64,000 nucleotides of DNA. Origin: a virus. The number at the start of each line of letters is the position of its first letter. The stretch's first letter is position 1. The position numbers and the translations under genes are program-made. The notes beneath the pieces were generated by a model. The model had not been told where the DNA came from. It did not search any database and saw only the letters and a program-made list of their open reading frames with translations. Of this stretch, positions 1,925 through 55,393 are shown in pieces. The DNA lies in IMG/VR virus record IMGVR_UViG_3300014137_000003. The stretch is one strand, 5' to 3'.

Positions 1925-2758
1925 ATGGATAACAGTTTGCAAGTTTTTATGGAGTTAGATACTCTAGTAGCTGAGGGGTATGCAGATGAACTAACTCCAG
2001 TAGAAGAGCACGGTGGTCACTTAGTCAAACGTGATGACTTGTACTCTGCTTTCGGAGCAATGGGGGGTAAAGCTCGTTCTTGTCAGTATTTGTGTGAGCA
2101 GGCTTTAAAAAGTGGTTTGAATGGGTTAGTAACTGCAGGTTCTAAGAAAAGCCCTCAAATTCAAATTGTTTCCTTTATCGCTAAGCATTATGGAGTTCCT
2201 TTCCATGCACATTGCCCTCAAGGTGAATTGGGTCAGGAGTTGGAGGTAGCTAAGGCTAATGGAGCTGAAATCTTTCAACACCGTGCAGGTTATAATAATG
2301 TAATTATTAGACGTGCTAAGGATGATGCAGAGGCTATGGGCTATGCGGAAATTCCTTTTGGTATGGAGTGTTGGGAGGCAGTATATCAGACAGCCTTGCA
2401 GGTTAAGTCTTTGGTAGAACCTTACAAGGAAGGTAAGTTCTCTCGTATTATCATGCCTATTGGCTCAGGTATGAGTTTGAGTGGTGTTCTTTGGGGCTTG
2501 CTCCATTGGGGTATCGATGTTCCCGTTGTAGGTGTTCAGGTTGGTGGTAAGTATGAGAAACGCTTACAAACCTATGCACCTGAAGATATGAACCTAACTA
2601 CTGTTAAATCTTCCTATGATTACCATAAATACTATGAAAACAACCAAATTGGTGACTTGAAGTTAGACCCTATCTATGAGGCTAAGTGTTTAGACTTTAT
2701 CGAAGAGGGTGATTTGCTATGGGTAGTAGGTGTTCGTGATGGGATTATTGAATCTTAG
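1925..2758 (+). CDS. PLP-dependent enzyme, ACC deaminase/D-cysteine desulfhydrase-like fold
   Basis: VKRDDL....GGKARS resembles the KRDDL..GGNKxRK lysine motif. The IGSGMSLSG glycine loop is typical of fold-type II PLP enzymes. Confidence 0.6.
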   Translation: MDNSLQVFMELDTLVAEGYADELTPVEEHGGHLVKRDDLYSAFGAMGGKARSCQYLCEQALKSGLNGLVTAGSKKSPQIQIVSFIAKHYGVPFHAHCPQGELGQELEVAKANGAEIFQHRAGYNNVIIRRAKDDAEAMGYAEIPFGMECWEAVYQTALQVKSLVEPYKEGKFSRIIMPIGSGMSLSGVLWGLLHWGIDVPVVGVQVGGKYEKRLQTYAPEDMNLTTVKSSYDYHKYYENNQIGDLKLDPIYEAKCLDFIEEGDLLWVVGVRDGIIES

Positions 2759-2779: not shown

Positions 2780-3145
2780 ATGATTAAACGAAGCTTAGGT
2801 TTCTATGTTGCTTGTTTTATTGGGTTTCTCTTAGTGACTTCAGTGGTAGGAGGGGTACTTCAGCTAAGTGGTTATCTTAGTAAGGCGGAGTCCAATTACA
2901 CTAAGGAGTCTCGGTCTAGAATTATTAAGGAGTTCGCTAATGAGAATGCAGTTTACACCGTAACTAAACTTAACATGGAAGAACATGGTGGTATCTTAGA
3001 TAAGTACCACGAATACTTTGTAACTGTAGAAGACGGCTCAGGTAAAGCAAAAACTATTACGGTTGAAGCTGGCTTGTATTACTCCTTAAATGTTGGAGAT
3101 AAGGTAGATTATAAAGGAAATATTTTAAGTTCAAGCAAGGAGTAA
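2780..3145 (+). CDS. membrane-anchored protein
   Basis: 121-aa ORF with an N-terminal hydrophobic helix (FYVACFIGFLLVTSVVGGVL). Confidence 0.65.
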   Translation: MIKRSLGFYVACFIGFLLVTSVVGGVLQLSGYLSKAESNYTKESRSRIIKEFANENAVYTVTKLNMEEHGGILDKYHEYFVTVEDGSGKAKTITVEAGLYYSLNVGDKVDYKGNILSSSKE

Positions 3146-3152
3146 ATAAAAA

Positions 3153-3674
3153 ATGAAAAATTGGGATAAAACGCTTTTAGTTTTTAGTACATTTGTTTTA
3201 TTACATCTTGCAGTAATGCCATTTGTAGGTTACCTAACGGGTAGTGGAGAAATATCACTCTTTCTAGGTGTGGTGTTGGCTATTGTTTTTATATTCTCAG
3301 CCAAGCATATCTTGGATAGGGGGTATCTAAATAACCGCAAAGTAAAGGATGTTTTTATTGTAGTAGCTCTACTTTGCGTTGGAACTCTTGTATTCTACGC
3401 TAAGACTACTAAGACAGAAGTTACAACTACTTCTAAAACTAAGGTTGTCGATGCTAAAGTTACTACAGAGTATAGTTATATGTCCTTCTATAGAATGACT
3501 CTTTTATCTGATGGCGATGTTATCTCTCTAGAACATGTTAAGAATGGTGGAGATTTCTATTTGGGCGATAAAGTTCGTGGCATTAAGAACGTTACGAAGA
3601 CAACTCATACAACGAATGTCTTTGGGGTAAAAACTTCTCACGTTAGTAAGTATATTGAGTTAAAAGGTAAGTAA
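3153..3674 (+). CDS. membrane protein
   Basis: 173-aa ORF with three N-terminal hydrophobic segments. Confidence 0.65.
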   Translation: MKNWDKTLLVFSTFVLLHLAVMPFVGYLTGSGEISLFLGVVLAIVFIFSAKHILDRGYLNNRKVKDVFIVVALLCVGTLVFYAKTTKTEVTTTSKTKVVDAKVTTEYSYMSFYRMTLLSDGDVISLEHVKNGGDFYLGDKVRGIKNVTKTTHTTNVFGVKTSHVSKYIELKGK

Positions 3675-3675
3675 A

Positions 3676-3876
3676 ATGAAACTATCAAAAGCAGATGGAA
3701 AATATCTTTCAGAAGAAGGTTTCCTATCTTTGATTATAGGTGTTATCTTCTGTGTATCAGCTATTTTTAGTAGGTTTATGCTAGGAAGTAATACTTTGAC
3801 GACTTTATCCCTTATAGGAGTGGGGTATTTCTTTGGGAGTGGTATAACTTACCTAAAGATAGCTACTCGTAAATAG
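3676..3876 (+). CDS. small membrane protein
   Basis: 66-aa ORF with two hydrophobic helices. Its start abuts the upstream stop. Confidence 0.55.
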   Translation: MKLSKADGKYLSEEGFLSLIIGVIFCVSAIFSRFMLGSNTLTTLSLIGVGYFFGSGITYLKIATRK

Positions 3877-4054
3877 CTATCTTTTGGAGTCTTAGAAATT
3901 TTCGTTATTTTTATTGACAGTTAATTTTAGTATTAAATGCAATAGCTTAATTAGCTTTAATTTTTATAGGAATTCCTTAGATTTTTATCTAAGGTTTTAC
4001 TGGATTTATGGTACTTGGATCGTTGGTCTAGTACCTGTGCATAGGGGTGATTTA

Positions 4055-5554
4055 ATGGTAGTAGTAAATGTCAACCTTGGTATTGGGTATGCCTCAAGTG
4101 GGGTAGAGTACGCTCAAGCCTATCGTAGTAGGTTGTTAAAAAGTATGGGTAGAAAGCAAAAGAATGTTTTCTTAGATTTCATGCCCGATGATACGGTATA
4201 TGATATGGCTAGTAATTTGGGGATTCCGTCTGATTCGGTAGTATGGTTGTATGATTACTTTAGGGATTCCTTGGTTTCTAGCTCTGCTAAGAAATTGACA
4301 GACTTTGAAAAGGAGTGGGGTACTATTGATGAGTCTCGTTCTTCTGTATTCAGAAAGTATTTTGGAGATGAGAATGACTTTATCGTTGCTAATTTAAGTC
4401 GTTTTAACCCATCTTTTGTTACGTCTGTTGAGTATGTAAATGCTGGTTGTTTAGTCTTAAAAGAGTATTACTCTGAAAGCACTATTTATTGTAGGGAGCG
4501 TTTTACCCCTATTGATGGGGTAGCTACTCGGTATGTTAGGGAGTTCTATAATACAGATGGCACTCTTTACTTACAAGAGTTTATTGATGACACAAAAAAC
4601 TCAAGATTTCTCTATAAAGGAGAACTTTATCCAACAAAAGAAGCCTTATTTAAGTTAATGATGTCTAAAGTATTAACTAATAAGGATTTTGTACTACTTG
4701 ACCGTGCTAGTGGTACGGCTAAGGCTTTACTCTCTTTGAAGGATACTCTCAAATTTAAGTTGGGGGTAGTAGTTCATGCAGAGCATTTTGTTCCCGAAGG
4801 TACTAAGGATGGCAATATCCTATGGAACAACTTTTATGATTATGTTTTCCGTAATTCTGACAAGGTTAATGTCTTTATCTGTTCTACAGAGTTGCAGTCT
4901 GATATCTTGAAGAAGCAAATAAAACACTGCTATAATAAAGATATCGCAACTTATACTATTCCAGTGGGGTATCTTGAAGAGTTAAAAGGTAAAGATTTGG
5001 AAAGAGATTTAGCTAAGTTAGTCACTGTATCTCGTCTATCTAGTGAGAAGAACCTAGATATTCTTATTGAATCTCTTGCAACAGTAAAGGGTAAAGGTTA
5101 TGAATTTATTTTAGATATCTATGGTGAGGGTTCTGAGCGAATTAAGTTGGAGTCTCTAATTAAATCTAAAGGGTTAGAAGACTGTATCTTCTTAAAAGGT
5201 CACGTAGATGTATCAGATATCTATAAAGACTACTCATGTTATGTAAGTGCTTCTCAAGGGGAAGGTTTTGGTTTATCTTTAATGGAAGCAGTTGGCTCAG
5301 GTCTATTCCTAGTGGGGTATGATGTTAATTATGGAAACCCTACGTTCTGTAAGCAAAATGAGACAGGTTATCTAGTACCTTATGTAGAAGGTAAGCGAGA
5401 AGAAAATGTACTGTCACTTGCTGATGGTGTTGAGAAATATCTAGGCACTTATTTAACATTGCATAGGGGTAGTGTATATAACCTAGCTGAGGGGTATCTT
5501 AAAGATAAGGTAAAAGAATGTTGGAGGTCTTTGTTAAATGATAAGTCTATTTAG
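4055..5554 (+). CDS. gtfA: GtfA-like GT4 glycosyltransferase (O-GlcNAc transferase of serine-rich-repeat proteins)
   Basis: MVVVNVNLGIGYASSGVEYAQAYR, LGVVVHAEHF, ILWNNFYDY and EGFGLSLMEAVGSGL closely match streptococcal GtfA. The start is moved to the ATG at 4055, which follows an AGGGGTGA SD. The track start at 3914 adds 47 low-complexity residues. Confidence 0.85.
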   Translation: MVVVNVNLGIGYASSGVEYAQAYRSRLLKSMGRKQKNVFLDFMPDDTVYDMASNLGIPSDSVVWLYDYFRDSLVSSSAKKLTDFEKEWGTIDESRSSVFRKYFGDENDFIVANLSRFNPSFVTSVEYVNAGCLVLKEYYSESTIYCRERFTPIDGVATRYVREFYNTDGTLYLQEFIDDTKNSRFLYKGELYPTKEALFKLMMSKVLTNKDFVLLDRASGTAKALLSLKDTLKFKLGVVVHAEHFVPEGTKDGNILWNNFYDYVFRNSDKVNVFICSTELQSDILKKQIKHCYNKDIATYTIPVGYLEELKGKDLERDLAKLVTVSRLSSEKNLDILIESLATVKGKGYEFILDIYGEGSERIKLESLIKSKGLEDCIFLKGHVDVSDIYKDYSCYVSASQGEGFGLSLMEAVGSGLFLVGYDVNYGNPTFCKQNETGYLVPYVEGKREENVLSLADGVEKYLGTYLTLHRGSVYNLAEGYLKDKVKECWRSLLNDKSI

Positions 5555-6800
5555 TTATTATGATTCAGATGCTTGGGACTTGCATTACTCCTTGGAGGTT
5601 GATGGAGTTCATAATAGGACTTTGTCTTTGGATTTTAATGGTTTTCTGCCGAGTGATGTGGAGTCTCCTTGGGAGTCTTACCTTTACACTAGGGAGTTAC
5701 CTTTTAAACCTTTGCATGTGAATGATTTACCTCTACCACTGGGTGTAGAGTTGGAGTCTGAGGATGGTATCTTTTATCTCTATGGGGAGACTGGTATTGT
5801 TGGAAGGGTTTCTTTCTATGGGGAGTTGGTAGACCGTATTGTCAAGAGTGTCGATTATTTTGACACTAAAGGGCAACTTCTAGTTACCGAAAACTATTGT
5901 AACCGTGGATTTGTTTTCCGTAGGGACTACTATATTAGTGGTTCTTGGGTATCTAGTGTTTATTTTGATGACGAAGGTAAAGAGGTTATCTCTCACAACC
6001 TTTATACAGGGTATTTAATGGTAGGCTCTAAGTCTTACAGTAGCTTAAGCGAATTCTACTTGGGGTACTTGAAGGAACTTAACGAGCCTATCTTATTCAC
6101 AGAAGAAATGCTTGGCTTGGGTATTGTGGAAGGTTTGGGGTATAATCCTGAGAATGTTTTAGTGGTAACTGGTAGATACGATGACAATTTACCAGAAAAT
6201 ATTGTAGAGTTCGCTAAGACTGGTAAGGTTGTGTTTACTAACCGTTTCCAATATGATTCTACTAAAGAGGAGTACTCTAACTCAGGTTTTGCAGGTCTTA
6301 AGTTTAGAAAGGTTTCTGAGCTAGGTAGTCCTAATGATGTGGTAATTACTACTGACACAGACAATTTAGTTGGTATAGAAGAGTTAGTTCATGAATGTAA
6401 GAACACTCACTTCCATATTTTAGCAAGTACCTTGGTATCTAAGAAGTTAGAAAATCTAGGTAATCTGCCTAATGTCTCTGTATATCCATCTGCTAGTGAG
6501 GAGGATGTTACTTCATGCTTTGCTACAGCAGGTATTTTCCTAGATATCTCTACTGGTTCTACTGTATTCAATGCAAATAAGAGGGCTGTTGAGAACTCGA
6601 TGTTGCGGATTGGAGTATTGGGGGTATCTAGTGGCAAGCATATCACCAACGAGCTTTTGCACTCTAAAGACATGAAAGGGATTAGTAATATCCTTAATCT
6701 TGTGGCTGATGATAAGTCGGAACTAGCTGAATTGTATAAAAATCAAGAAACCTTGTTGGGGTATAACTCTTCAGAGTCTTTTAGTAGTTTTATTAAGTAG
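5538..6800 (+). CDS. gtfB: GtfB-like glycosylation partner/chaperone
   Basis: The N-terminus (MISLFSYYDSDAWDLHYSLEVDGVH....FNGFLP) resembles accessory-Sec GtfB. The gene overlaps the gtfA stop, as in gtfA-gtfB operons. Confidence 0.75.
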   Translation: MISLFSYYDSDAWDLHYSLEVDGVHNRTLSLDFNGFLPSDVESPWESYLYTRELPFKPLHVNDLPLPLGVELESEDGIFYLYGETGIVGRVSFYGELVDRIVKSVDYFDTKGQLLVTENYCNRGFVFRRDYYISGSWVSSVYFDDEGKEVISHNLYTGYLMVGSKSYSSLSEFYLGYLKELNEPILFTEEMLGLGIVEGLGYNPENVLVVTGRYDDNLPENIVEFAKTGKVVFTNRFQYDSTKEEYSNSGFAGLKFRKVSELGSPNDVVITTDTDNLVGIEELVHECKNTHFHILASTLVSKKLENLGNLPNVSVYPSASEEDVTSCFATAGIFLDISTGSTVFNANKRAVENSMLRIGVLGVSSGKHITNELLHSKDMKGISNILNLVADDKSELAELYKNQETLLGYNSSESFSSFIK

Positions 6801-6822
6801 CTTTGCGTTCAGGGGGTGTTTA

Positions 6823-6831
6823 TGGTAAACT
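6823..6831 (+). promoter_or_regulatory. extended -10 promoter (TGGTAAACT)
   Basis: Promoter-family member located 37 nt upstream of the ATG at 6868. Confidence 0.55.
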
Positions 6832-6867
6832 ATGTTATATAGATATAGTTTAGTGGAGGTTTTATAT

Positions 6868-7080
6868 ATGGATTTGAATGCAAGTGGAGAAAGTAACGGT
6901 AGCTTGGAAGGACGCAAACAGTTCTTAGCAGAACTTACAAAAATGTCTAGCAAGGTTTCTACTATGGATAAAGCAGTGCTACTATCTTTCGATCCAAAAG
7001 GTAAAGTAGATATCTCATCCTTTGGTTTTCATCCTTTGGAGTTGGCAGCAACTCTTGATGGTATCTCTAAAACAATCTGA
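6868..7080 (+). CDS. hypothetical protein (possible UGA read-through to 7203)
   Basis: The start is set at the ATG at 6868, after a GGAGG SD and downstream of the promoter. After the TGA at 7078 the frame stays open for 40 more codons. Confidence 0.55.
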   Translation: MDLNASGESNGSLEGRKQFLAELTKMSSKVSTMDKAVLLSFDPKGKVDISSFGFHPLELAATLDGISKTI

Positions 7081-7229
7081 GATGGCGTATTTCAAAGTCA
7101 AAATCCTGAAGAAGCATTAATTGCAGCCCGTAGGGATGTAGCCATAGCGTGTGGGGTACCTCCAGAAGAACTAGATAAACTTGAAGATGATGAATCTAAG
7201 TAGAAGAAAATAAATGAAGGTATTAAATT

Positions 7230-7823
7230 ATGAGTAAACAGTATTTAATTGTTAGTGAGCAGGTAGGTAGTTTCCTAGAGAATAAGTCCTACAAAACTCC
7301 TCGTGAAAAGGTTGCCTTTATGGCATCCATATATGAGGCTGAGAGGCGTGCTGAAGACCCTCTCGTTCTGAGCGATGGGGATTACGATATTATTATGCGT
7401 ATCCTAAACGGTGAGGAGTTCGTAGTTGATACAGGTAAATTTTATATCAATGTAGGAGCACCTATTAATCGTGAGGAGTTCTTGTGTACGGTAGAGGTTA
7501 CTTATGATGCTGAAGGTAACCGTCTAATTGAGTGGGGCTTAGATACTCTCGATAATGCCTTCCTCTTTAGGGAACAGGATTGGGAAACTCTTGTACCTGA
7601 AGGGTATCGTAGTGATATCTTTAAGGTTATGGAACGTCTTGCTTATTTGAGGAAGGAAGAGAAGGAAGAAAGTTTCTCTCCATTTAATCCTCCTGTTGTA
7701 GAAGAAGCAGACAATGAAGTAATTTCGTATGAGGAAGGCACTTCAGACGAAGATAGCAGTGAGAACACTCATCTTAGTGAGGAAGGAACTACCTCTCTTT
7801 TAAACCAGGAAATAATCCTTTAA
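7230..7823 (+). CDS. hypothetical protein, acidic C-terminus
   Basis: 197-aa ORF with an acidic, Ser-rich tail. Confidence 0.65.
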   Translation: MSKQYLIVSEQVGSFLENKSYKTPREKVAFMASIYEAERRAEDPLVLSDGDYDIIMRILNGEEFVVDTGKFYINVGAPINREEFLCTVEVTYDAEGNRLIEWGLDTLDNAFLFREQDWETLVPEGYRSDIFKVMERLAYLRKEEKEESFSPFNPPVVEEADNEVISYEEGTSDEDSSENTHLSEEGTTSLLNQEIIL

Positions 7824-7925
7824 CCTCGGTCTAGGGGTATGGATTTACCTAAGTGAACTTTTGGTAGTAATTAGCGTGGGTTAAGTGTATATAGCAGCTT
7901 TGTTAGGGTATGTACTTAACTATTT

Positions 7926-7931
7926 TAGAAT
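7926..7931 (+). promoter_or_regulatory. -10 box (TAGAAT)
   Basis: TTTTAGAATATTGTAT lies in a 180-nt gap upstream of 8003. Confidence 0.4.
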
Positions 7932-8002
7932 ATTGTATATTTTATTAGGGTATCTTACTTGGGCACCTTAAGCAATAATTAAAAGAATAAAGAGGAAAAA
8001 TA

Positions 8003-8965
8003 ATGAATAAAGTTAAGTTATTTTCAGGCGTAGTTTTGGCAACAACAGTTGCTAGTTTGGTGGGTAGTGTAGCATCTGCTGATATTCAGACAGATACAAT
8101 CAATGAGAAGTGGGGCAAACCTACTTTGGTTTACGGTAGTGACCTTACTGATGCACAGGTTGCAGAGACTAACAACGCTTTCGGTATCAAGAATATCGAT
8201 AACGTAAACCGTCAAATCACAACTTCGGACGACTTTAACAAATGGATGGGAACTACTGGTGAAACTCCAGCCCTTATTTCTTCAGCTTTGGTACAAAAGG
8301 CTGATAAAGGTAATGGTGTAAAAGTAAATATTAAAACTCCACAAAATATTACCAAAGTGACTACCTTGCAGTATCAAAATGCAGCTATTACGGCAGGAGC
8401 TAGTGATGTAAATATTGATATTGCTAGCCCTATTTCCGTAACAGGTGAATCCGCCTTAGTAGGGGTATCTAAAGCCTTAGAGGCAAATGGTCAGAAAGTA
8501 GATCCAAAACGTGCAGAAGTCGCTAACCAAGAGTTGTCTACTACTGCAAATATTGCTGACCAGAACAAAGATAACAAAAAATTCGACCCAGCAGCTCTTG
8601 ATTTGGCTTTAGCTCAAATTAAGACTGATTTGGCTGACTATAAAAACTCAAATGGTAAAACTGCAGACAACGCTAAAATTGAAGAAATCGTTAACAAGGC
8701 TTTGAAAGACAATGGTCTTGACCAAATCATTTCTGCTGACCAAGTTCAACAGCTTGTATCATTTGCTAATGCTTATCAAAATACTTCTGCCATTGACTCT
8801 AAAGAAGTGAAAAACCAGCTTGATAGTTTTGCAAAAAATGCTTACAATTCTTTGTCTGATAGCTACAAGAAAGTAATTGACGGTGATGGTGGTGGAATCC
8901 TTGATGGATTTGTATCATTCTTTAAGGGATTGTTTAATGGTATTGCTGATTTGTTTAAAAATTAA
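8003..8965 (+). CDS. secreted DUF1002-like protein
   Basis: Signal peptide MNKVKLFSGVVLATTVASLVGSVASA followed by WGKPTLVYGSDLT, which resembles Firmicute DUF1002 extracellular proteins. It has a canonical AGAGGA SD and only one GGGGTA copy. Confidence 0.7.
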   Translation: MNKVKLFSGVVLATTVASLVGSVASADIQTDTINEKWGKPTLVYGSDLTDAQVAETNNAFGIKNIDNVNRQITTSDDFNKWMGTTGETPALISSALVQKADKGNGVKVNIKTPQNITKVTTLQYQNAAITAGASDVNIDIASPISVTGESALVGVSKALEANGQKVDPKRAEVANQELSTTANIADQNKDNKKFDPAALDLALAQIKTDLADYKNSNGKTADNAKIEEIVNKALKDNGLDQIISADQVQQLVSFANAYQNTSAIDSKEVKNQLDSFAKNAYNSLSDSYKKVIDGDGGGILDGFVSFFKGLFNGIADLFKN

Positions 8966-8989: not shown

Positions 8990-9268
8990 ATGTTAGGTTT
9001 AGTAAAGGTAAATAAGCTCATGGACTTGCTATCTAAGGATATCGAGTCTCAGCTTTGTCCAGTGTATCATATCGTTAATCCTCAAACTAAAGAGGAAGAA
9101 TTCCAGTTAACTCCTAGTCATGATTGGGCACCTATGTTGATTCGTGTACGTGATGAGAGGGTTTATACGGCAGAGTCGGCTATTAGGGGTACTTTAGGAA
9201 GACTGGAAAGGCAAGGCTATTTGGTAGCATCAAGGGTGGAAGAGTTATGTCAACTAAAAGAAAATTAG
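8990..9268 (+). CDS. hypothetical protein
   Basis: 92-aa ORF with an AGGGGTAG SD upstream. Confidence 0.6.
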   Translation: MLGLVKVNKLMDLLSKDIESQLCPVYHIVNPQTKEEEFQLTPSHDWAPMLIRVRDERVYTAESAIRGTLGRLERQGYLVASRVEELCQLKEN

Positions 9269-9696
9269 TAATAGCAGTCCTAGTAACGTTGGTTTCAGCT
9301 TTAGGGTTGTTTCTTTACAGAGCTTATTCCGCAGCAGATTACTTTATATTTGCTGAACGCAATCAAAATACCAGTGTAGTTAAGTCCTTAGAAACCTTGG
9401 AATCTCGTAAGATTATTGTTCTTTACAAAAGGCACTGTAAGGTATGTAAGGCATGGGACGAAGAGGTAACTTCAACCTTAGAGCCTTATGATGCTTCTTA
9501 CTTGGATATGGAAGACGGTATTCCAGAAAATGTTTCTACTGTCTTAAGTACTCTGCATCAGGATGTGCATACACCTCTTGTCTTAGTGGTAAGTAGGGTA
9601 GGGGGTAGCTACCTTGTACAGTATAGTCGTACAGTTGATAGTAAGGACTCTTTAGAAGACTTGAAGAATTATCTAAGAAGTAATTTCACTTCTTAG
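9247..9696 (+). CDS. membrane-anchored thioredoxin-like protein (CxxC)
   Basis: N-terminal TM helix, then VLYKRHCKVCKAWD (a CxxC motif in a thioredoxin-like context). Confidence 0.55.
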   Translation: MSTKRKLVIAVLVTLVSALGLFLYRAYSAADYFIFAERNQNTSVVKSLETLESRKIIVLYKRHCKVCKAWDEEVTSTLEPYDASYLDMEDGIPENVSTVLSTLHQDVHTPLVLVVSRVGGSYLVQYSRTVDSKDSLEDLKNYLRSNFTS

Positions 9697-9785: not shown

Positions 9786-10238
9786 ATGGGTTATAGTATT
9801 TTCTCTCATAAAAGTGAGTTGCTTGGACGTTCTGAGTTTACCTTAGCATATCTAAAGGATATCAATAATAAACTAAGTAACTTAAATGCTGATGGATGTG
9901 TCATTCAAAATGTAGAGTATGATAATGATGGTCGTTTTCTAATTCAGTATTTAACCCGTGACTCTGCAGAAGTTCTTAAAACAGTTGCGGAACATGAAGA
10001 AAAGGAACAAGCAATCATTAATTCTTTGGTTCGAGATTGCTCTAAAGCTTTGACTAATACTGTTTCTGAAGATGTTTATTGCAAAGTAGTAAACTATGGC
10101 AGTGGAGAAGTTTCAAAAGAGCTTTCTTCTAGCTTTTTCAAACGTTGGTATCGAGATATCCAAAGCATTAGCCGTGCTGACGGGTGCTTTGAGGTAGAGT
10201 TGGAGAATGGTGAAAAGTACGCTCTATCACGTTTGTAG
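9786..10238 (+). CDS. hypothetical protein
   Basis: The start is moved to the ATG at 9786 (GGAGG SD). The track start at 9747 lies inside the promoter. Confidence 0.6.
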   Translation: MGYSIFSHKSELLGRSEFTLAYLKDINNKLSNLNADGCVIQNVEYDNDGRFLIQYLTRDSAEVLKTVAEHEEKEQAIINSLVRDCSKALTNTVSEDVYCKVVNYGSGEVSKELSSSFFKRWYRDIQSISRADGCFEVELENGEKYALSRL

Positions 10239-10294
10239 TCTTAAGATATTATTTTAGGTAAGACCATTTATATTTTAATATGTGGTTAGTTTCG

Positions 10295-10384
10295 TTCACC
10301 GTAGCTCTTTTTAGGGTGAATTGGTGCTCTTTGCTCCTATTTAGGGGTTTAGGGCTTATGCAGGTTCGAGTCCCGTCGGTGGCG
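10295..10384 (+). pseudogene. degenerate tRNA-like element
   Basis: It has a T-arm (GCAGG TTCGAGT CCCGT, one A/C mismatch) and 6 of 7 acceptor pairs (TTCACCG/CGGTGGC). I could not fold a D-arm or a 7-nt anticodon loop. Confidence 0.25.
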
Positions 10385-10568
10385 TAGACTGTTAGGGTTT
10401 TACGGTCTTTAGGTCTTAGGGGGTAACCCGTTATAGTTTACCTTTTTCATATTGTTCCATAATAGACGAATATTTTGCCACTCTAAGACGGCTTTTCCTT
10501 GCTAGGTTTGAGGGGGTTGGATTCCCTCTAAGAGCTTTATAAATTTTTAAATAAAGGTGTTTGGTTTT

Positions 10569-10811
10569 ATGATCCGTGGTAGTTATGCGTGTGTAAAGTA
10601 CGCAAGAAATGTATCAAAAAGTAATTTCACTGCATTAGATTTAGTTCAGGAATGTAATGACAATTCTCTATGGGGTATCTCTTTAGAGGATTTATACTTG
10701 CAAACTGGTATCCTAGTTCCAAGGCTTAAGAAGTTTTTCAACTACTTGGCTATACCTAATGAGAAAGAGTTCTCATCTTTGCTTTCTGTTCGTAATCGTT
10801 ATGTTAGCTAA
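10569..10811 (+). CDS. hypothetical protein
   Basis: 80-aa ORF with a weak SD. The start is uncertain (10557 GTG or 10569 ATG). Confidence 0.4.
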   Translation: MIRGSYACVKYARNVSKSNFTALDLVQECNDNSLWGISLEDLYLQTGILVPRLKKFFNYLAIPNEKEFSSLLSVRNRYVS

Positions 10812-10856
10812 TCTATTGGTTATTAGGTTAGCTTTAATTGTATATAGGAGTTTTAA

Positions 10857-11522
10857 ATGCATAAAGAAAAGAAAATCCAGTACTCAAATTATAAGTATAG
10901 AGCTTATAAAAAGTTGAATAAGTTGTTCCTAGATAAACTTAAACAGCTTGGTATTACAGGGACTGAATCTGTTCTTCTAGATTTCCAGATAGAGTACTAT
11001 ATACCCAGTAATAGATATCGTGTTGTAGTATTTTATGGAGAAAGGGGTATTATTTGTACAATACCTTATACGGACTCCGATGAATATACAATTAGTATAG
11101 AAATAGGTAGAGGGGGATGTTGTTATGTAGGAAATAACTTCTCTAATAAAATGGAATCTTATCTAAAGGAGTTAATCAAATATAAGTTGCCAGATACTGT
11201 TGAGATTGTTAGGTTTTATGCAAATAACAATCAGATTTCTTATAGTTATATGACTAGGAGCTATATAGAACTTGAAAGAGGTAGGTCGGGGTATCCAGAA
11301 AAAGATAAGCCGAAACACTTAAAGCACGATTTTTCTAGTAAAATGGTCTCTTACCTAAAACAGCTACTAAAATATAAACTGCAAGAAAATGTTGAATATT
11401 TCTATTTTTATGCAGATTATTTTCGTATTGACTATAATAGTAAAGATAAAAACTGTGAGATTATTGAAAATGCTAGGTCAGGTCAACCAGAGAAAGGTGG
11501 GTTTAGCTTTTATATGGGGTAG
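10857..11522 (+). CDS. paralog-family protein (KxYxxYKxEAYxxL N-terminus, duplicated C-domain)
   Basis: N-terminus KIQYSNYKYRAYKKLNKL. An internal repeat (KMESYLKELIKYKLPDTVE / KMVSYLKQLLKYKLQENVE) ends each time in RSGYPEK / RSGQPEK. Confidence 0.7.
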   Translation: MHKEKKIQYSNYKYRAYKKLNKLFLDKLKQLGITGTESVLLDFQIEYYIPSNRYRVVVFYGERGIICTIPYTDSDEYTISIEIGRGGCCYVGNNFSNKMESYLKELIKYKLPDTVEIVRFYANNNQISYSYMTRSYIELERGRSGYPEKDKPKHLKHDFSSKMVSYLKQLLKYKLQENVEYFYFYADYFRIDYNSKDKNCEIIENARSGQPEKGGFSFYMG

Positions 11523-11534
11523 AAAGGTGTTCAG

Positions 11535-12005
11535 ATGAGTAATGTAAGGAAAATAAAATATTCAGATTATAAGTACGAAGCTTACAAACGTTTGAATAAG
11601 TTGGTTTTAGAACAGATGGAAGAAATTGTCACATCTAGGCTTCCAAAGGGGTATGTTGTAACGAGCCCTAATAATTTAGAATTTCAAATTCAGTATGATG
11701 TACCAGAAAATAGATATCGTATTGAAGGGTTCTATGAAAGATATCCAATTTGTTCACTATTTTGTATTGATGAACCTAGTTCATTCCATGCAGTAATGAA
11801 GTTTCCTAACTATCCTAAAGTAGGTGACGACTTCTTTGAGAAGATATTATCCCCTATAAAGAAGTTAATGAATTATAGCTTACAAGAGAATGTTGCATCT
11901 GTTAAGCTCTATGTAGATGACAGTCAGATTTATTATAGTCGCCTAAATAGTAGGGGTAGAGTTATAGAGTCAGGTAACTCAGGCTATTATAAGAGGGGTA
12001 ACTAA
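11535..12005 (+). CDS. paralog-family protein
   Basis: KIKYSDYKYEAYKRLNKL and IKKLMNYSLQENV..GNSGYYK parallel the sequence of 10857-11522. Confidence 0.7.
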   Translation: MSNVRKIKYSDYKYEAYKRLNKLVLEQMEEIVTSRLPKGYVVTSPNNLEFQIQYDVPENRYRIEGFYERYPICSLFCIDEPSSFHAVMKFPNYPKVGDDFFEKILSPIKKLMNYSLQENVASVKLYVDDSQIYYSRLNSRGRVIESGNSGYYKRGN

Positions 12006-12934
12006 TGCCATATAATGGGAAAATTACAAAAAGTATTTTAAGACCTTACTATCACAAGGCACTTGAGTACAAAGTTATTAAGGGTATCGCCCTTAAAGTT
12101 CTAGAAGAAAGTGACTTTTTTGATAAGACTGGTTTATCACCTGACAAGATTAGAATTTCTTTTGGTGACGATGGCACTTTTCCTAAATGGGAGACTCCAG
12201 TATTTGTTAATGGAGTTTGCGTATTTAGATTTAATGGACCTAGTATTGAAAGTTCAGGGCAATATAAGTTCCGTAGATGTCTTACAGACGAGGAGTTCTA
12301 TAAGTTTAGCGATAACTTAAAATTCCTTTTCATGGGTTCTAACACTAACACAATCCCTAAAGAGTTAGGTGGGGTGGTTAGTTATTGGGAAGTCACGGAA
12401 AGCTACTGTGAGTTTGTCGTTGAGGAGACTAGGTTCTTAAACAAAGATTGGGGTACTGAATTCCCCAACGTTTACGAGAAAGAACTTCCAAAGTATAAAA
12501 AGGAAGCTTTTGGGAAAATTGAAAAGGTAGTTAATGGTTTAATTACTAAGGCAGGTTTCACTCCTAGTAATAATCCTTACTATATGAACGGTAAGTTTAA
12601 GACGATTTTACGATATACCGACCCCAGCAATCAAAACAATAGTGGAAGTACTCGTAGTTTTGTTGTTTCTCTTGGGGTTGAGCAGTGCCTTGTCGTAAAT
12701 GGTAGGAGTGTCTATTGTGTAAATGGTTTTAAGTGCAACTTATCTGAGAAAGAGTACCGTACAATCTACAAGAACATAGAAATTCTACATAGGTTTGCAG
12801 GAGAGAAGGGTACTACAATAGAGTCCAAGATAGGTAAAATCACTAATTACTATCTTAGCAGTGATAAGACTAAGTTTACTGGTACTTTTGGTCATTACTT
12901 GGAGAGAGGCAGAGAGTACAAAGAAGTTAAATAG
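12005..12934 (+). CDS. paralog-family protein (two fused units)
   Basis: RPYYHKALEYKVIKGIALKVLEE at the N-terminus and a second unit starting with LPKYKKEAFGKIEKVV. Confidence 0.7.
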   Translation: MPYNGKITKSILRPYYHKALEYKVIKGIALKVLEESDFFDKTGLSPDKIRISFGDDGTFPKWETPVFVNGVCVFRFNGPSIESSGQYKFRRCLTDEEFYKFSDNLKFLFMGSNTNTIPKELGGVVSYWEVTESYCEFVVEETRFLNKDWGTEFPNVYEKELPKYKKEAFGKIEKVVNGLITKAGFTPSNNPYYMNGKFKTILRYTDPSNQNNSGSTRSFVVSLGVEQCLVVNGRSVYCVNGFKCNLSEKEYRTIYKNIEILHRFAGEKGTTIESKIGKITNYYLSSDKTKFTGTFGHYLERGREYKEVK

Positions 12935-24448: not shown

Positions 24449-24830
24449 GGGGTCGTCTTGGATTCGACAGGCGACTGAGATTAAGAACTTCACTCCGAGT
24501 GGTGACGTAATCACCAAACTTAAATATAACTGCAAACACAGTTCAACCTGTTGAGATGGCAGCCTAACAAGTCTCCCTCGACTTGTATGTCTGTCTAATC
24601 AACACAAGTAAATTACCGATTAAGGTGAGCGACTATCTGTAAGTAACGGTGCAGTGGTAGCTATAAACCACGTTACTCGCTAGAAGGGGTATCTCAGCCC
24701 TCTAGTTAAATACGAGATATAGCTTTAGGGTTTGTGCATTTACCTAAGGTCGAATGTTTAAATGTAGCAGAGTGCTATAGAGTTTTTAGTTGAGGTTGTT
24801 TGGACGTGGGTTCGAAACCCACCGGCTCCA
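24449..24830 (+). ncRNA. ssrA: tmRNA (SsrA), tag ANTVQPVEMAA
   Basis: The 5' end GGGGTCGTCTTGGATTCGACAGG and 3' end GGACGTGGGTTCGAAACCCACCGGCTCCA form an alanine-type acceptor with G3:U70. The tag ORF (GCAAACACAGTTCAACCTGTTGAGATGGCAGCCTAA) spans 24532-24567. Confidence 0.9.
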
Positions 24831-44524: not shown

Positions 44525-44959
44525 ATGCTATTAGTTAAGAATAGGAAGGCTTATCATGATTACTCTGTACTCCGTACCTTGGAGTGTGGGGTTGTTTTGG
44601 TAGGTAGTGAAGTTAAATCGCTAAAGGCTCATCACGGAGTCCTCAAAGGTTCTTGGGGGTATATTTCTAACGAAGAAGTGTTCTTAAAGGGGGTACACAT
44701 TCCGAAATGGGGTACGTCTGTTTGGAACCATGAAGAAGAAAGAGACCGTAAATTACTCCTACATAAAAAGGAAATTAAGGGTTTAGCGAAAGACTTGTCT
44801 CTTGGCGATGGGTTAACTCTTGTACCTTTAGAGCTTAAAGTTGTAAAAGGTCGAATAAAGTGCACTCTTGGCTTGTGTAAAGGTAAGAAAAACTATGATA
44901 AGCGTCAAGCTCTGAAAGAAAGAGACATCAAACGTAGTCTAGAAAGGTTAGTTAGGTAG
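44525..44959 (+). CDS. smpB: SmpB (tmRNA-binding protein)
   Basis: NRKAYHDYSVLRTLECGVVLVGSEVKSLK, RDRKLLLHKKEI and GLCKGKKNYDKRQALKERD align with E. coli SmpB (NKRARHEY...GWEVKSLR, RTRKLLL, GVAKGKKQHDKRSDIKERE). Confidence 0.9.
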   Translation: MLLVKNRKAYHDYSVLRTLECGVVLVGSEVKSLKAHHGVLKGSWGYISNEEVFLKGVHIPKWGTSVWNHEEERDRKLLLHKKEIKGLAKDLSLGDGLTLVPLELKVVKGRIKCTLGLCKGKKNYDKRQALKERDIKRSLERLVR

Positions 44960-48548: not shown

Positions 48549-48561
48549 TTTAAGTTTAGAT

Positions 48562-48715
48562 TTCCGAATACTTTATTAGGTTTTCCGAAAATATTTTTAG
48601 TTTTCTGAAATATAGGTTATGTTTTCCGAAAGTTATTTTATGTTTTCCGAAAGTTGGTTTATACTTTCTGATTTTTAGTTCCAGTAGGCTGAAAGTTTGT
48701 ATTCAGTCTTCCGAA
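48562..48715 (+). repeat. array of 8 TTTTCCGAAA-type iterons with about 21-bp phasing
   Basis: TTCCGAA or TTCTGAA cores start at 48562, 48583, 48603, 48624, 48645, 48666, 48687 (degenerate) and 48709. Confidence 0.8.
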
Positions 48716-54147: not shown

Positions 54148-54235
54148 AGAAGTTAAAGAGTTTATATTTTGATTTCTGAGAGTTAGAGTATAGACTTCTA
54201 AAAGTAGTAGTATCTACATAATGGAGGAATTAATT

Positions 54236-55393
54236 ATGCGTGAAGTAAATGCAACCCTTATTGTCGACTTAGGTAATAGCGAGACAAGGGTTATGGTTCA
54301 GTCAGGTCTTGGTAGGAACGGTTTGGTACGCCAGCGTATGTCTTTGGTAAGCAATAAATATGCGTCCTTACGAGAGGGGTACGAAGTTCCAGAAACTTAC
54401 ACAGAAGAGAACTCATCTATTCTAAGAACTAAGGATGGAGAGTTGTTTGCAAATGGATTGCTTGTAGAACGTGAGTTTTCGGTAGCACCTTTACGTCCAA
54501 CAAACTTGGAGAAAAAGCACGAAAGTAAGGTAACTATGATTACAATTCAACGTGCTTTCTTAGAGGGGTATAAATTGCTCTCTCAAATGTACCGAACATC
54601 TATGTCAAACCTTGACGTTACTTGGAAGGTAGTTTATTTGCTACCACCAAATGATATTTCTGAGGGTGCTAAGGTACTGTACGAAAAGATTGTAGGTCTT
54701 AAAACTCTTGAGTTTGTATTGCCTGAGTTTTCTGTTGATTTAAAAATCGAGGGTGCTAAAGTTTACCCAGAAGGGTTTGCAGCCTATATTGGAACTCTTA
54801 TGCGTAAAGGTAAAACTATCAATGAAGAGTTTAAAGGTTTGCTTGAATCAACAACCCTTATTGTTGACATCGGTGCAGGAACTACGGACTTCTTCGTGGT
54901 AGAGGGGATGGACACCATTGACTCTACTAAATCAACAATTCAAATTGGGGGTAACAACGTAACAGCATCTCTACGTCAACGAATGGCGAGTGCAGGTCTT
55001 AGTCTAACTGATAAGGTTATTGAGAAAGGTGTTCGCACTGGATATGTGAAAGATGGTGCTAAAACAATCAAAGTTGTTAAGGCTTTGGTGGCAGCAAAAC
55101 AGGACACTGCAAGCGTTCTTTTGGGTTCCATTATCTCTTATTTGGAAAGTGCTAACTATAACATTCGTACCATTGAAAATCTCCTTGTAGTTGGAGGTGG
55201 TAGTATCCCTAGTGATATCGAGGGTGTTAAGTCTCTGTCTGAGTATGTAGTAGAACGCTTAAAAGATTTTGCTCCTAACATTCAGTTGGTAAACTTGCCT
55301 AAAGAATATAAAGGTGAAGATACTACTGGTGGGGAGTTGAATCCTCGATTGTTAAACATTCTAGGTGCAGGGGTACTAGCAGAAATGGGGTAA
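54236..55393 (+). CDS. actin-like ATPase (ParM/Alp family)
   Basis: Phosphate-1 motif LIVDLGNSETRV, phosphate-2 motif LIVDIGAGTTDF and adenosine motif LLVVGGGS. The start is at the ATG after GGAGGA. Confidence 0.8.
   Translation: MREVNATLIVDLGNSETRVMVQSGLGRNGLVRQRMSLVSNKYASLREGYEVPETYTEENSSILRTKDGELFANGLLVEREFSVAPLRPTNLEKKHESKVTMITIQRAFLEGYKLLSQMYRTSMSNLDVTWKVVYLLPPNDISEGAKVLYEKIVGLKTLEFVLPEFSVDLKIEGAKVYPEGFAAYIGTLMRKGKTINEEFKGLLESTTLIVDIGAGTTDFFVVEGMDTIDSTKSTIQIGGNNVTASLRQRMASAGLSLTDKVIEKGVRTGYVKDGAKTIKVVKALVAAKQDTASVLLGSIISYLESANYNIRTIENLLVVGGGSIPSDIEGVKSLSEYVVERLKDFAPNIQLVNLPKEYKGEDTTGGELNPRLLNILGAGVLAEMG

Follow-up and report, generated by a model that had tools for sequence, protein, structure and literature searches.

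The virus record IMGVR_UViG_3300014137_000003 of the IMG/VR collection holds, within an analysed stretch of 64,000 nucleotides (hereafter the window), two overlapping genes whose products match the GtfA and GtfB protein families from end to end. In bacteria, the GtfA-GtfB complex attaches N-acetylglucosamine (GlcNAc) to Ser/Thr residues of adhesins in the cytosol before their export (10.1101/219105; PMC6973325). The pair in the window stands without its secretion partners and without its substrate, and it is conserved in prevalent but uncultured oral elements of 176-247 kb. Our judgement is evenly divided on the proposal that the two proteins may form an active, stand-alone protein O-GlcNAc transferase, which would operate without the accessory Sec system and act on surface-bound proteins. 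More tentatively, large viruses or virus-like elements of oral streptococci might use such an O-GlcNAc transferase of their own to rewrite the surface-protein glycosylation of the infected cell; the targets would then be serine-rich adhesins and autolysins of the host and, in some lineages, adhesins that are encoded by the element itself.

The GtfA-GtfB pair

The first gene lies within an open reading frame (ORF) that starts with TTG and spans positions 3914-5554 on the + strand. An internal ATG at 4055, with AGGGGTGA just before it, gives a protein of 499 amino acids, and gtfA was accordingly placed at 4055..5554 (+). The product is predicted to be the catalytic subunit, a glycosyltransferase of family GT4 with a GT-B fold and the extended beta-sheet domain of GtfA (EBD, DUF1975). 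In a profile search it matches NCBIfam TIGR02918 over residues 1-495 of 499 (E=1e-141, 473.1 bits), and it contains the Pfam domains GtfA_EBD (1.5e-16) and Glycos_transf_1 (3.8e-24). Its PDB matches include GtfA of S. gordonii (5E9T_A, E=1.4e-108, aligned over 3-496) and GtfA of S. pneumoniae (4PQG, E=5.9e-103, full length). SdgB-type PDB chains match only at 5.5e-26 and TarM chains at 4e-21 to 3e-20, and the scores against the SdgA and SdgB families, 133 and 129 bits, compare with cut-offs of 800. On these profile and structure matches, protein 1 is a full-length member of the GtfA family.

The residues that are expected to bind the nucleotide sugar are intact. The segments SRLSSEK (residues 326-332) and EGFGLSLME (403-411) line up with their counterparts in 5E9T and 4PQG, and R327, K332, E403 and E411 are invariant among 16 members of the clade described below; the roles of the Arg/Lys pair and of the E-x7-E residues are taken from general knowledge of GT4 enzymes and from published work (10.1101/219105). 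A sequence-only reading of the window had recognised the first gene as gtfA from four motifs, and all four are present in protein 1, namely NLGIGYASSGVEYAQAYR at residues 7-24, VVVHAEHF at 238-245, LWNNFYDY at 256-263 and EGFGLSLMEAVGSGL at 403-417.

The second gene, gtfB (5538..6800, +), encodes a protein of 420 amino acids, which is predicted to be a non-catalytic subunit that binds the acceptor or serves as a chaperone. It matches NCBIfam TIGR02919 over residues 1-418 of 420 (E=2e-58, 198.2 bits) and the PDB chain 5E9U_B (E=7.5e-32), and the precomputed Pfam domain GtfB_M is present in its orthologues. By these matches, protein 2 is a full-length member of the GtfB family, as the sequence-only reading had also supposed; that reading had called for profile searches, and both families were found over essentially the entire length of the proteins. 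It had named a different GT4 subfamily for the first protein, or a lack of GtfB likeness in the second, as the outcome that would speak against it, and the two proteins turned out to resemble GtfA and GtfB much more strongly than TarM or SdgA/SdgB. The Pfam scan gave no match to Glycos_transf_1 in GtfB, and no significant similarity was detected between GtfB and GtfA of the window. By inspection, the GtfB segment opposite the E-x7-E region lacks the first Glu. The missing Glycos_transf_1 match fits the published division of labour in which GtfA is catalytic and GtfB binds the substrate (10.1101/219105).

The two genes overlap by 17 nucleotides and GGAGG stands before the start codon of gtfB. 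Each start is preceded by a Shine-Dalgarno sequence, and this, with the overlap, suggests that gtfA and gtfB are co-translated. Both proteins score below the curated equivalog cut-offs of their families at NCBI (473.1 versus 574.6 bits for TIGR02918, and 198.2 versus 338.3 bits for TIGR02919), and are therefore divergent family members.

Distribution, phylogeny and selection

A search of 5.8 billion proteins recovered metagenomic relatives of the window GtfA at 43-97% identity, located on contigs of 115-247 kb. Their source samples are mostly human oral and include those of the Human Microbiome Project (HMP) and of a saliva cohort. In the same search, bacterial GtfA proteins begin at approximately 40% identity, and among 185,579 bacterial and archaeal species, each represented by one genome, nothing nearer than 41% was found. 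The nearest bacterial sequences are those of S. vestibularis (41%) and S. salivarius (40%), which belong to gtfA-gtfB pairs that have no serine-rich-repeat (SRR) gene within 10 kb.

The GtfA sequences of the elements were monophyletic in 100 of 100 neighbour-joining bootstraps, and in none of the 100 was this clade sister to the orphan pair of S. vestibularis and S. salivarius. The ratio of nonsynonymous to synonymous substitution rates (dN/dS) is 0.17 for gtfA and 0.16-0.20 for gtfB (five relatives, 95-97% nucleotide identity), and the pair is under purifying selection. The single deep clade, the low dN/dS values and the invariant residues indicate that the pair has long been present in this lineage and has been kept functional.

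Isolated phages offer no close counterpart. Neither gtfAB nor the window segment at 28-52 kb has a nucleotide match in 50,697 phage records, and a protein of 1448 amino acids has no match among isolated phages. Full-length tblastn matches to gtfAB occur only in records named 'Staphylococcus phage SA ... Kay', which are up to 282,636 bp long and which we suspect to be fragments of host chromosomes that were deposited as phage. Three of these unannotated records (OR844989.1, OR849872.1 and OR844998.1) encode GtfA and GtfB at 36% and 25% identity, respectively.

One additional pair was encountered on another contig. The siphovirus-like IMG/VR contig IMGVR_UViG_3300045988_119780 (locus L012, 44.8% GC) carries a separate gtfA-gtfB pair at 9992-12848, just upstream of packaging genes; by inspection, small and large terminase, portal, protease and capsid genes are present. 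Its GtfA shares approximately 52% identity with GtfA of streptococci and groups beside bacterial sequences, outside the element clade. This pair represents a second acquisition of gtfAB, independent of that in the element family.

Accessory Sec genes and candidate acceptors

The SRR adhesins that are modified by GtfA-GtfB in accessory Sec systems are exported by SecA2/SecY2, and the search for these partners covered the window and its relatives. The window was scanned for families of Pfam, NCBIfam and PHROG in all ORFs of at least 70 amino acids. Acceptors were sought as Ser-rich, Ser/Thr-rich and LPXTG proteins in the window, in 15 + 15 related loci and in a stepwise walk on contig IMGVR_UViG_3300008274_000007 from 51 to 181 kb. 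IMG/VR contigs of 118,773 and 180,840 bp carry GtfA sequences that are 96-97% identical to that of the window, and the window together with the walk on the 180,840-bp contig represents roughly positions 51,000-180,840, or approximately 130 kb of the lineage.

Among the window ORFs, neither a SecA, SecY or Asp protein nor a further glycosyltransferase family was found, and secA2, secY2, asp, further glycosyltransferase and SRR genes were likewise not detected in approximately 130 kb of the related 181-kb contig. The coding strand of the window contains no Ser-rich-repeat ORF, and the Ser-rich frames that were seen are antisense. These scans agree with the sequence-only reading, which had noted that secA2, secY2, asp and an SRR substrate are missing from the window; its suggestion that a Ser-rich-repeat protein be looked for outside the window yielded none in the approximately 130 kb of the lineage. 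In about 35 related loci of this family of elements, neither a canonical SRR ORF nor a SecA, SecY or Asp family was found within 10 kb of gtfA.

Of the 80 bacterial loci that served as a positive control, 40 carry an SRR ORF at most 10 kb from gtfA, and on a staphylococcal plasmid gtfA and gtfB terminate a secY2-asp1-asp2-asp3-secA2 cluster. Because both controls were positive, the stripped-down gtfAB arrangement of the elements is a real contrast.

Gene neighbourhood and adhesin-linked loci

Across lineages, the pair is embedded in a conserved gene order, which consists of a pyridoxal phosphate (PLP)-dependent enzyme, small membrane proteins, gtfA, gtfB, a small protein, a secreted DUF1002 protein and a membrane-anchored CxxC protein. 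In lineages in which GtfA is 43-49% identical, the membrane proteins share 31-45% and gtfB 32-38% identity. The neighbourhood of gtfAB consistently contains membrane, secreted and wall-anchored proteins, which points to the cell envelope.

The sequence-only reading had placed three small membrane proteins before the pair, and hydrophobic segments of 19 residues, one to three apiece, do occur in all three ORFs. The first (2780..3145, +; 121 amino acids) is membrane-anchored by one N-terminal hydrophobic segment, has a weak DUF7489 match and is 42% identical to its counterpart in the related locus L003. The second (3153..3674, +; 173 amino acids) contains three hydrophobic segments and the Thr-rich stretch TTKTEVTTTSKTK, and is 41% identical in L003. 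The third (3676..3876, +; 66 amino acids) shares 32-45% identity with homologues in L003, L008, L009 and L014. A role of these proteins similar to that of Asp4/Asp5 was considered and set aside, as they have no NCBIfam match. Between the membrane-protein genes and gtfA, a terminator-like hairpin with a T-run is located at 3975..3994 (+); it is a consensus match only, and terminator-like hairpins are not more numerous in the region than in shuffled sequences.

Downstream of gtfB, a conserved small protein of 197 amino acids (7230..7823, +) follows in most lineages, with 39-42% identity in L003, L008, L009, L014, L016 and L017 and a length of 145-197 amino acids. An acidic Ser-rich tail of this protein is limited to the window lineage, and the protein was for this reason rejected as a general acceptor; its single-sequence structure model (predicted local distance difference test, pLDDT, of 38) is unusable. 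The secreted DUF1002 protein (8003..8965, +; Pfam DUF1002 4e-52, N-terminal hydrophobic segment) is 73-76% identical across lineages with a dN/dS of 0.02-0.06. Its gene is linked to gtfAB in both gene arrangements seen, and in L188 it is located upstream of the block of adhesin genes and gtfAB. The membrane-anchored CxxC protein (9247..9696, +) is thioredoxin-like by inspection and has homologues at 30-32% identity in L008, L009 and L014. A comparable protein with a transmembrane segment and a CxxC motif follows gtfB in L006, a likeness that was likewise judged by inspection.

The PLP-dependent enzyme (1925..2758, +) belongs to the 1-aminocyclopropane-1-carboxylate (ACC)-deaminase/D-cysteine desulfhydrase superfamily (Pfam PALP 2e-11, weak NCBIfam matches). 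Between lineages whose GtfA proteins are merely 43-49% and whose other neighbours are 30-50% identical, this enzyme retains 89-91% identity, a conservation that is unusually strong for an accessory-looking gene.

In some lineages, gtfAB is directly linked to adhesin genes. Two genes for LPXTG proteins lie directly upstream of gtfAB in L006, L007 and L188. The first encodes an adhesin of the antigen I/II family with 1657 amino acids and a YSIRK-type signal, in which repeats of approximately 11 residues that contain S-x-S-A (for example RRSNSAKAEN) take the place of the alanine-rich region. The second protein has 904 amino acids and is coiled-coil-like in appearance. One further lineage carries the same adhesin pair 94 kb away from gtfAB, and another relative encodes an LPATG-anchored protein that resembles microbial surface components recognizing adhesive matrix molecules (MSCRAMM). 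The adhesin loci are located at 1979-9878 in L006, 10001-17897 in L188, 9995-18691 in L190 and 12049-13611 in L186. The ORFs downstream of gtfAB in L006 have no PHROG match.

A different surface protein is found in the subclade with 47-48% GtfA identity. At 6-8 kb downstream of gtfAB, its members encode a secreted, membrane-anchored low-complexity protein with GGSKS repeats, together with LemA and a TPM-domain protein (17547-20172 in L003; the same region in L010, L011, L013, L017, L109, L111, L112, L114, L116 and L117). The GGSKS-repeat protein is a possible acceptor in this subclade alone.

Nature of the carrying element

Nearly all window ORFs of at least 100 amino acids are located on the + strand, the GC content is 34-41% and the GC skew is positive throughout. 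The window encodes nine tRNAs, a transfer-messenger RNA (tmRNA), SmpB, HU, an ATP-cone protein and SbcCD-like nucleases, and in addition a helicase, a RecJ-like protein, RNase HIII, DUF3310 proteins and an actin-like protein. The walked stretch adds a family A DNA polymerase, a T4-type topoisomerase II, a DnaB-like helicase, a primase and an NAD ligase, as well as an SNF2 helicase, ParB-like and ArdC-like proteins, a membrane protein that bears a Phage_lysozyme2 domain, and a cluster of forkhead-associated (FHA), protein phosphatase 2C (PP2C) and Ser/Thr-kinase proteins. No isolated phage has a counterpart that is more than 29% identical to the polymerase or to the topoisomerase subunit. In independent assemblies, the contigs cluster at approximately 176-195 kb and 221-247 kb. 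Capsid, portal, terminase and tail genes were not recognised in the approximately 130 kb by Pfam and PHROGs, and the Phage_lysozyme2 membrane protein and a weak tape-measure PHROG match were the only hints of such genes in this stretch.

The sequence-only reading had spoken of a phage copy of the pair. A phage is probable: the relatives are catalogued as viral in IMG/VR, and approximately 130 kb of the lineage encode phage-type replication genes, tRNAs and a tmRNA, but no virion gene was recognised there. An unlikely but serious alternative is that the element is a giant plasmid-like molecule in the manner of the Inocles, with gtfAB as cargo that glycosylates host adhesins during long carriage. 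Inocles are giant plasmid-like extrachromosomal elements of oral Streptococcus, characterised by InoC with a replication-relaxation domain, VirB4/VirD4, the alpha subunit of Pol III, insertion sequence (IS) elements, a GC content of 32% or 24% and a size of 245-395 kb (PMC12340149). A glycosyltransferase is not mentioned for them (PMC12340149). The unrecognised capsid, portal, terminase and tail genes would suit such an element, as would its ParB-like, ArdC-like anti-restriction and actin-like proteins, the LPXTG adhesins of its relatives, which Inocles also have, and a stretch of more than 120 kb in which the genes point one way and the GC skew does not change. Against this, the relatives are catalogued as viral genomes in IMG/VR, and the element encodes the family A polymerase, T4-type topoisomerase II, DnaB-like helicase, primase, ligase, DUF3310 proteins, nine tRNAs, tmRNA and SmpB. 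Furthermore, VirB4, VirD4, Pol III and replication-relaxation proteins were not among the families listed, the top 25 per scan, for the approximately 130 kb, no IS transposase was noticed there, the GC content is 37%, and the sizes fall into two clusters in independent assemblies. Because the features seen differ from those of Inocles, we call the element phage-like, and it is probably a large phage.

Several further observations concern the element. The tRNA, tmRNA and SmpB genes span window positions 15642-46058, with the tmRNA at 24449-24830 (tag ANTVQPVEMAA) and SmpB at 44525-44959. A protein of 390 amino acids (54221-55393) has an actin/MreB-like C-terminal domain (PF21522, 3.7e-11) and may serve the element in segregation or as a cytoskeletal protein. 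A tandem array of 4.9 copies of the 21-bp unit TTTCCGAAAGTTATTTTATGT at 48561-48662, just upstream of the gene for a helicase of 712 amino acids, looks iteron-like. In the window, 166 copies of the hexamer GGGGTA lie on the + strand and four on the - strand, as compared with approximately 28 expected on both strands and a maximum of 44 in shuffles. The hexamer is found in coding and intergenic sequence (for example at 115, 12935, 20133 and 33946), is often extended to GGGGTATCT and in some cases closely precedes a start codon. A polar signal similar to Chi or to the FtsK orienting polar sequences (KOPS) is one possibility, a partial relation to ribosome-binding sites another. In L018, positions 5558-8946, which lie 2-5 kb past the 3' end of the window, contain genes for an FHA-domain protein, a PP2C phosphatase and a Ser/Thr kinase of 655 amino acids, which are followed by a protein of 990 amino acids and an ArdC-like metalloprotease.

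Proposed function and alternative explanations

From the homology, the intact motifs, the pairing, the conservation, the purifying selection and the gene context, all of which are observed, we infer the activity, the sugar donor, the acceptor class and the biological effect of the pair as follows. The carrier would be a phage-like element of approximately 190 kb that resides in human oral Gram-positive cocci, probably Streptococcus. GtfA would be the catalytic subunit, with UDP-GlcNAc as the most likely donor, and GtfB an acceptor-binding paralogue without catalytic activity. Within the cytoplasm of the host, the complex would transfer a single GlcNAc onto Ser/Thr residues of low-complexity segments prior to export; the single-sugar product is predicted because no elongating transferase is encoded nearby. 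The acceptors would most likely be surface-bound, such as SRR adhesins and autolysin-type proteins of the host and, where they are carried, LPXTG adhesins of the element. The pair would thus be part of a block for the remodelling of the cell envelope. That it could be an active stand-alone transferase is suggested by two precedents. In Lactiplantibacillus plantarum, Gtf1/Gtf2 constitute a general glycosylation pair of the GtfAB type for which no link to an accessory Sec locus is described; they attach a single N-acetylhexosamine to the Ala/Ser/Thr-rich domain of the Acm2 autolysin and to other proteins, act intracellularly before secretion and modulate autolysin activity and protease resistance (PMC5796085). 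In S. salivarius, the linked pair GtfE/GtfF is located apart from the secA2/Y2 locus and primes the glycosylation of adhesins (PMC6973325). The statement of the sequence-only reading that the complex serves SRR adhesins of SecA2/SecY2 therefore holds for accessory Sec systems, but not as its sole role (PMC5796085; PMC6973325).

Several observations weigh against the proposed stand-alone transferase. The acceptor gene is not adjacent to the pair, and within approximately 130 kb the window lineage has no acceptor candidate: SRR, LPXTG and Ser/Thr-rich low-complexity domains were not found there, and the densest stretch comprises 12 Ser+Thr in 30 residues. The link between adhesin genes and gtfAB exists in some lineages only, and in one of them the two are 94 kb apart. 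Since GtfA and GtfB score below the equivalog cut-offs, their specificity may have shifted. A phage copy would look redundant in a host that has its own GtfAB, and the host itself is not fixed by SmpB, which is approximately 50-55% identical to that of assorted Bacillota and uninformative in this respect.

It is also conceivable, although we consider it doubtful, that the pair serves the virion and attaches O-linked sugar, before assembly, to a capsid, decoration or tail protein within a Ser/Thr-rich segment, as the mycobacteriophage enzymes do. Virion glycosylation by phage enzymes is already in the literature, and a cytoplasmic enzyme needs no export system for such a target. No structural gene was seen in 130 kb, and any virion module would sit in the other approximately 51 kb of the 181-kb contig. 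This role presupposes virions, however, for which no gene was recognised in the approximately 130 kb; moreover, gtfAB is surrounded by membrane and secreted proteins without structural genes among them, and in L006 it adjoins wall-anchored adhesins.

Retargeting of the enzyme, which would then place GlcNAc onto wall or lipoteichoic acid in a TarM-like manner and mask receptors, or onto phage DNA, is improbable. Prophage-encoded teichoic-acid glycosyltransferases exist, and the GT-B core of GtfA is homologous to that of TarM and SdgB. Yet the match to GtfA is approximately 80 orders of magnitude better than that to SdgB-type chains and almost 90 better than that to TarM, the SdgA and SdgB scores (133 and 129 bits) are far from the cut-offs of 800, and purifying selection has kept the partner GtfB, a subunit specific to protein acceptors. 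The weaker similarity to TarM and SdgB and the kept GtfB make a teichoic-acid or DNA acceptor unlikely. DNA modification was also rejected because no hydroxymethylase-type family, and no thymidylate-synthase-like gene, was among the top 25 families listed per Pfam scan. Of the three roles that the sequence-only reading had put forward, a non-protein or retargeted one is the least supported. Finally, it is very improbable that gtfAB is a decaying, non-functional passenger from a host, because, despite scores under the NCBIfam equivalog cut-offs, the frames are full-length, the catalytic motifs are intact, dN/dS is 0.16-0.20, and the clade is monophyletic, deeply diverged and syntenic across lineages.

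Novelty and implications

Neither the type of enzyme nor its operation without an accessory Sec system is new. What is new is the carrier and the deep clade that is specific to it, and a full-text literature search returned no description of GtfA/GtfB in phages or in elements of a similar kind. In bacteria, GtfA/GtfB primes the adhesins behind colonisation and endocarditis. The element clade and the independent acquisition by a siphovirus-like contig suggest that protein O-GlcNAcylation is put to use by mobile elements for ends of their own. If large viruses or virus-like elements do rewrite the surface glycosylation of the infected cell with this transferase, it would be the first virus-encoded protein glycosylation system of the GtfA/GtfB type, and adhesion, lysis control or immune recognition would be altered while the element is carried. 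Confirmation would mean that a virus alters streptococcal surface glycoproteins, with effects on adhesion, biofilm formation, autolysis and antigenicity, and GtfB, at approximately 25% identity to bacterial GtfB, would then be a natural experiment in acceptor specificity. Since gtfA and gtfB are short and complete, the pair is amenable to co-expression with candidate acceptors.

Comparison with known systems

The pair shares with GtfA/GtfB of the accessory Sec systems the combination of a GT4 enzyme that carries EBD/DUF1975 with a paralogue predicted to be inactive, the order and overlap of the two genes, the end-to-end alignment and the conserved nucleotide-sugar binding motifs. It differs in its identity, which is merely approximately 37-41% for GtfA and 25% for GtfB, with scores below the equivalog cut-offs, in the lack of secA2, secY2, asp1-3 and an SRR gene nearby, and in the phage-like element that carries it. 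Adjacent GtfA/GtfB-like genes without accessory Sec neighbours are a trait that it has in common with L. plantarum Gtf1/Gtf2 and S. salivarius GtfE/F. Unlike the pair described here, Gtf1/Gtf2 of L. plantarum WCFS1 are chromosomal and their acceptors are known; this comparison is by description only. The orphan pairs of S. vestibularis and S. salivarius, which by their context alone we take to be GtfE/F, are the best bacterial matches and yet not sister to the element clade (0/100).

Staphylococcus aureus SdgA/SdgB and TarM also have the GT-B fold of family GT4, and SdgA/B attach GlcNAc to serines in the Ser-Asp repeats of LPXTG proteins. The similarity of the window GtfA to these enzymes is far weaker than that to GtfA (133 and 129 bits for SdgA and SdgB; 5.5e-26 for SdgB-type chains and 4e-21 to 3e-20 for TarM). 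To our knowledge, SdgA/SdgB and TarM act without a GtfB-type partner. The virion glycosyltransferases of mycobacteriophages are likewise carried by phages and O-glycosylate proteins in the cytoplasm, but, by description, they belong to another enzyme family, have no GtfB-type partner and act on capsid and tail proteins. Inocles, also compared by description, are set apart from the element by its family A polymerase, its GC content of 37% and its contigs of at most 247 kb.

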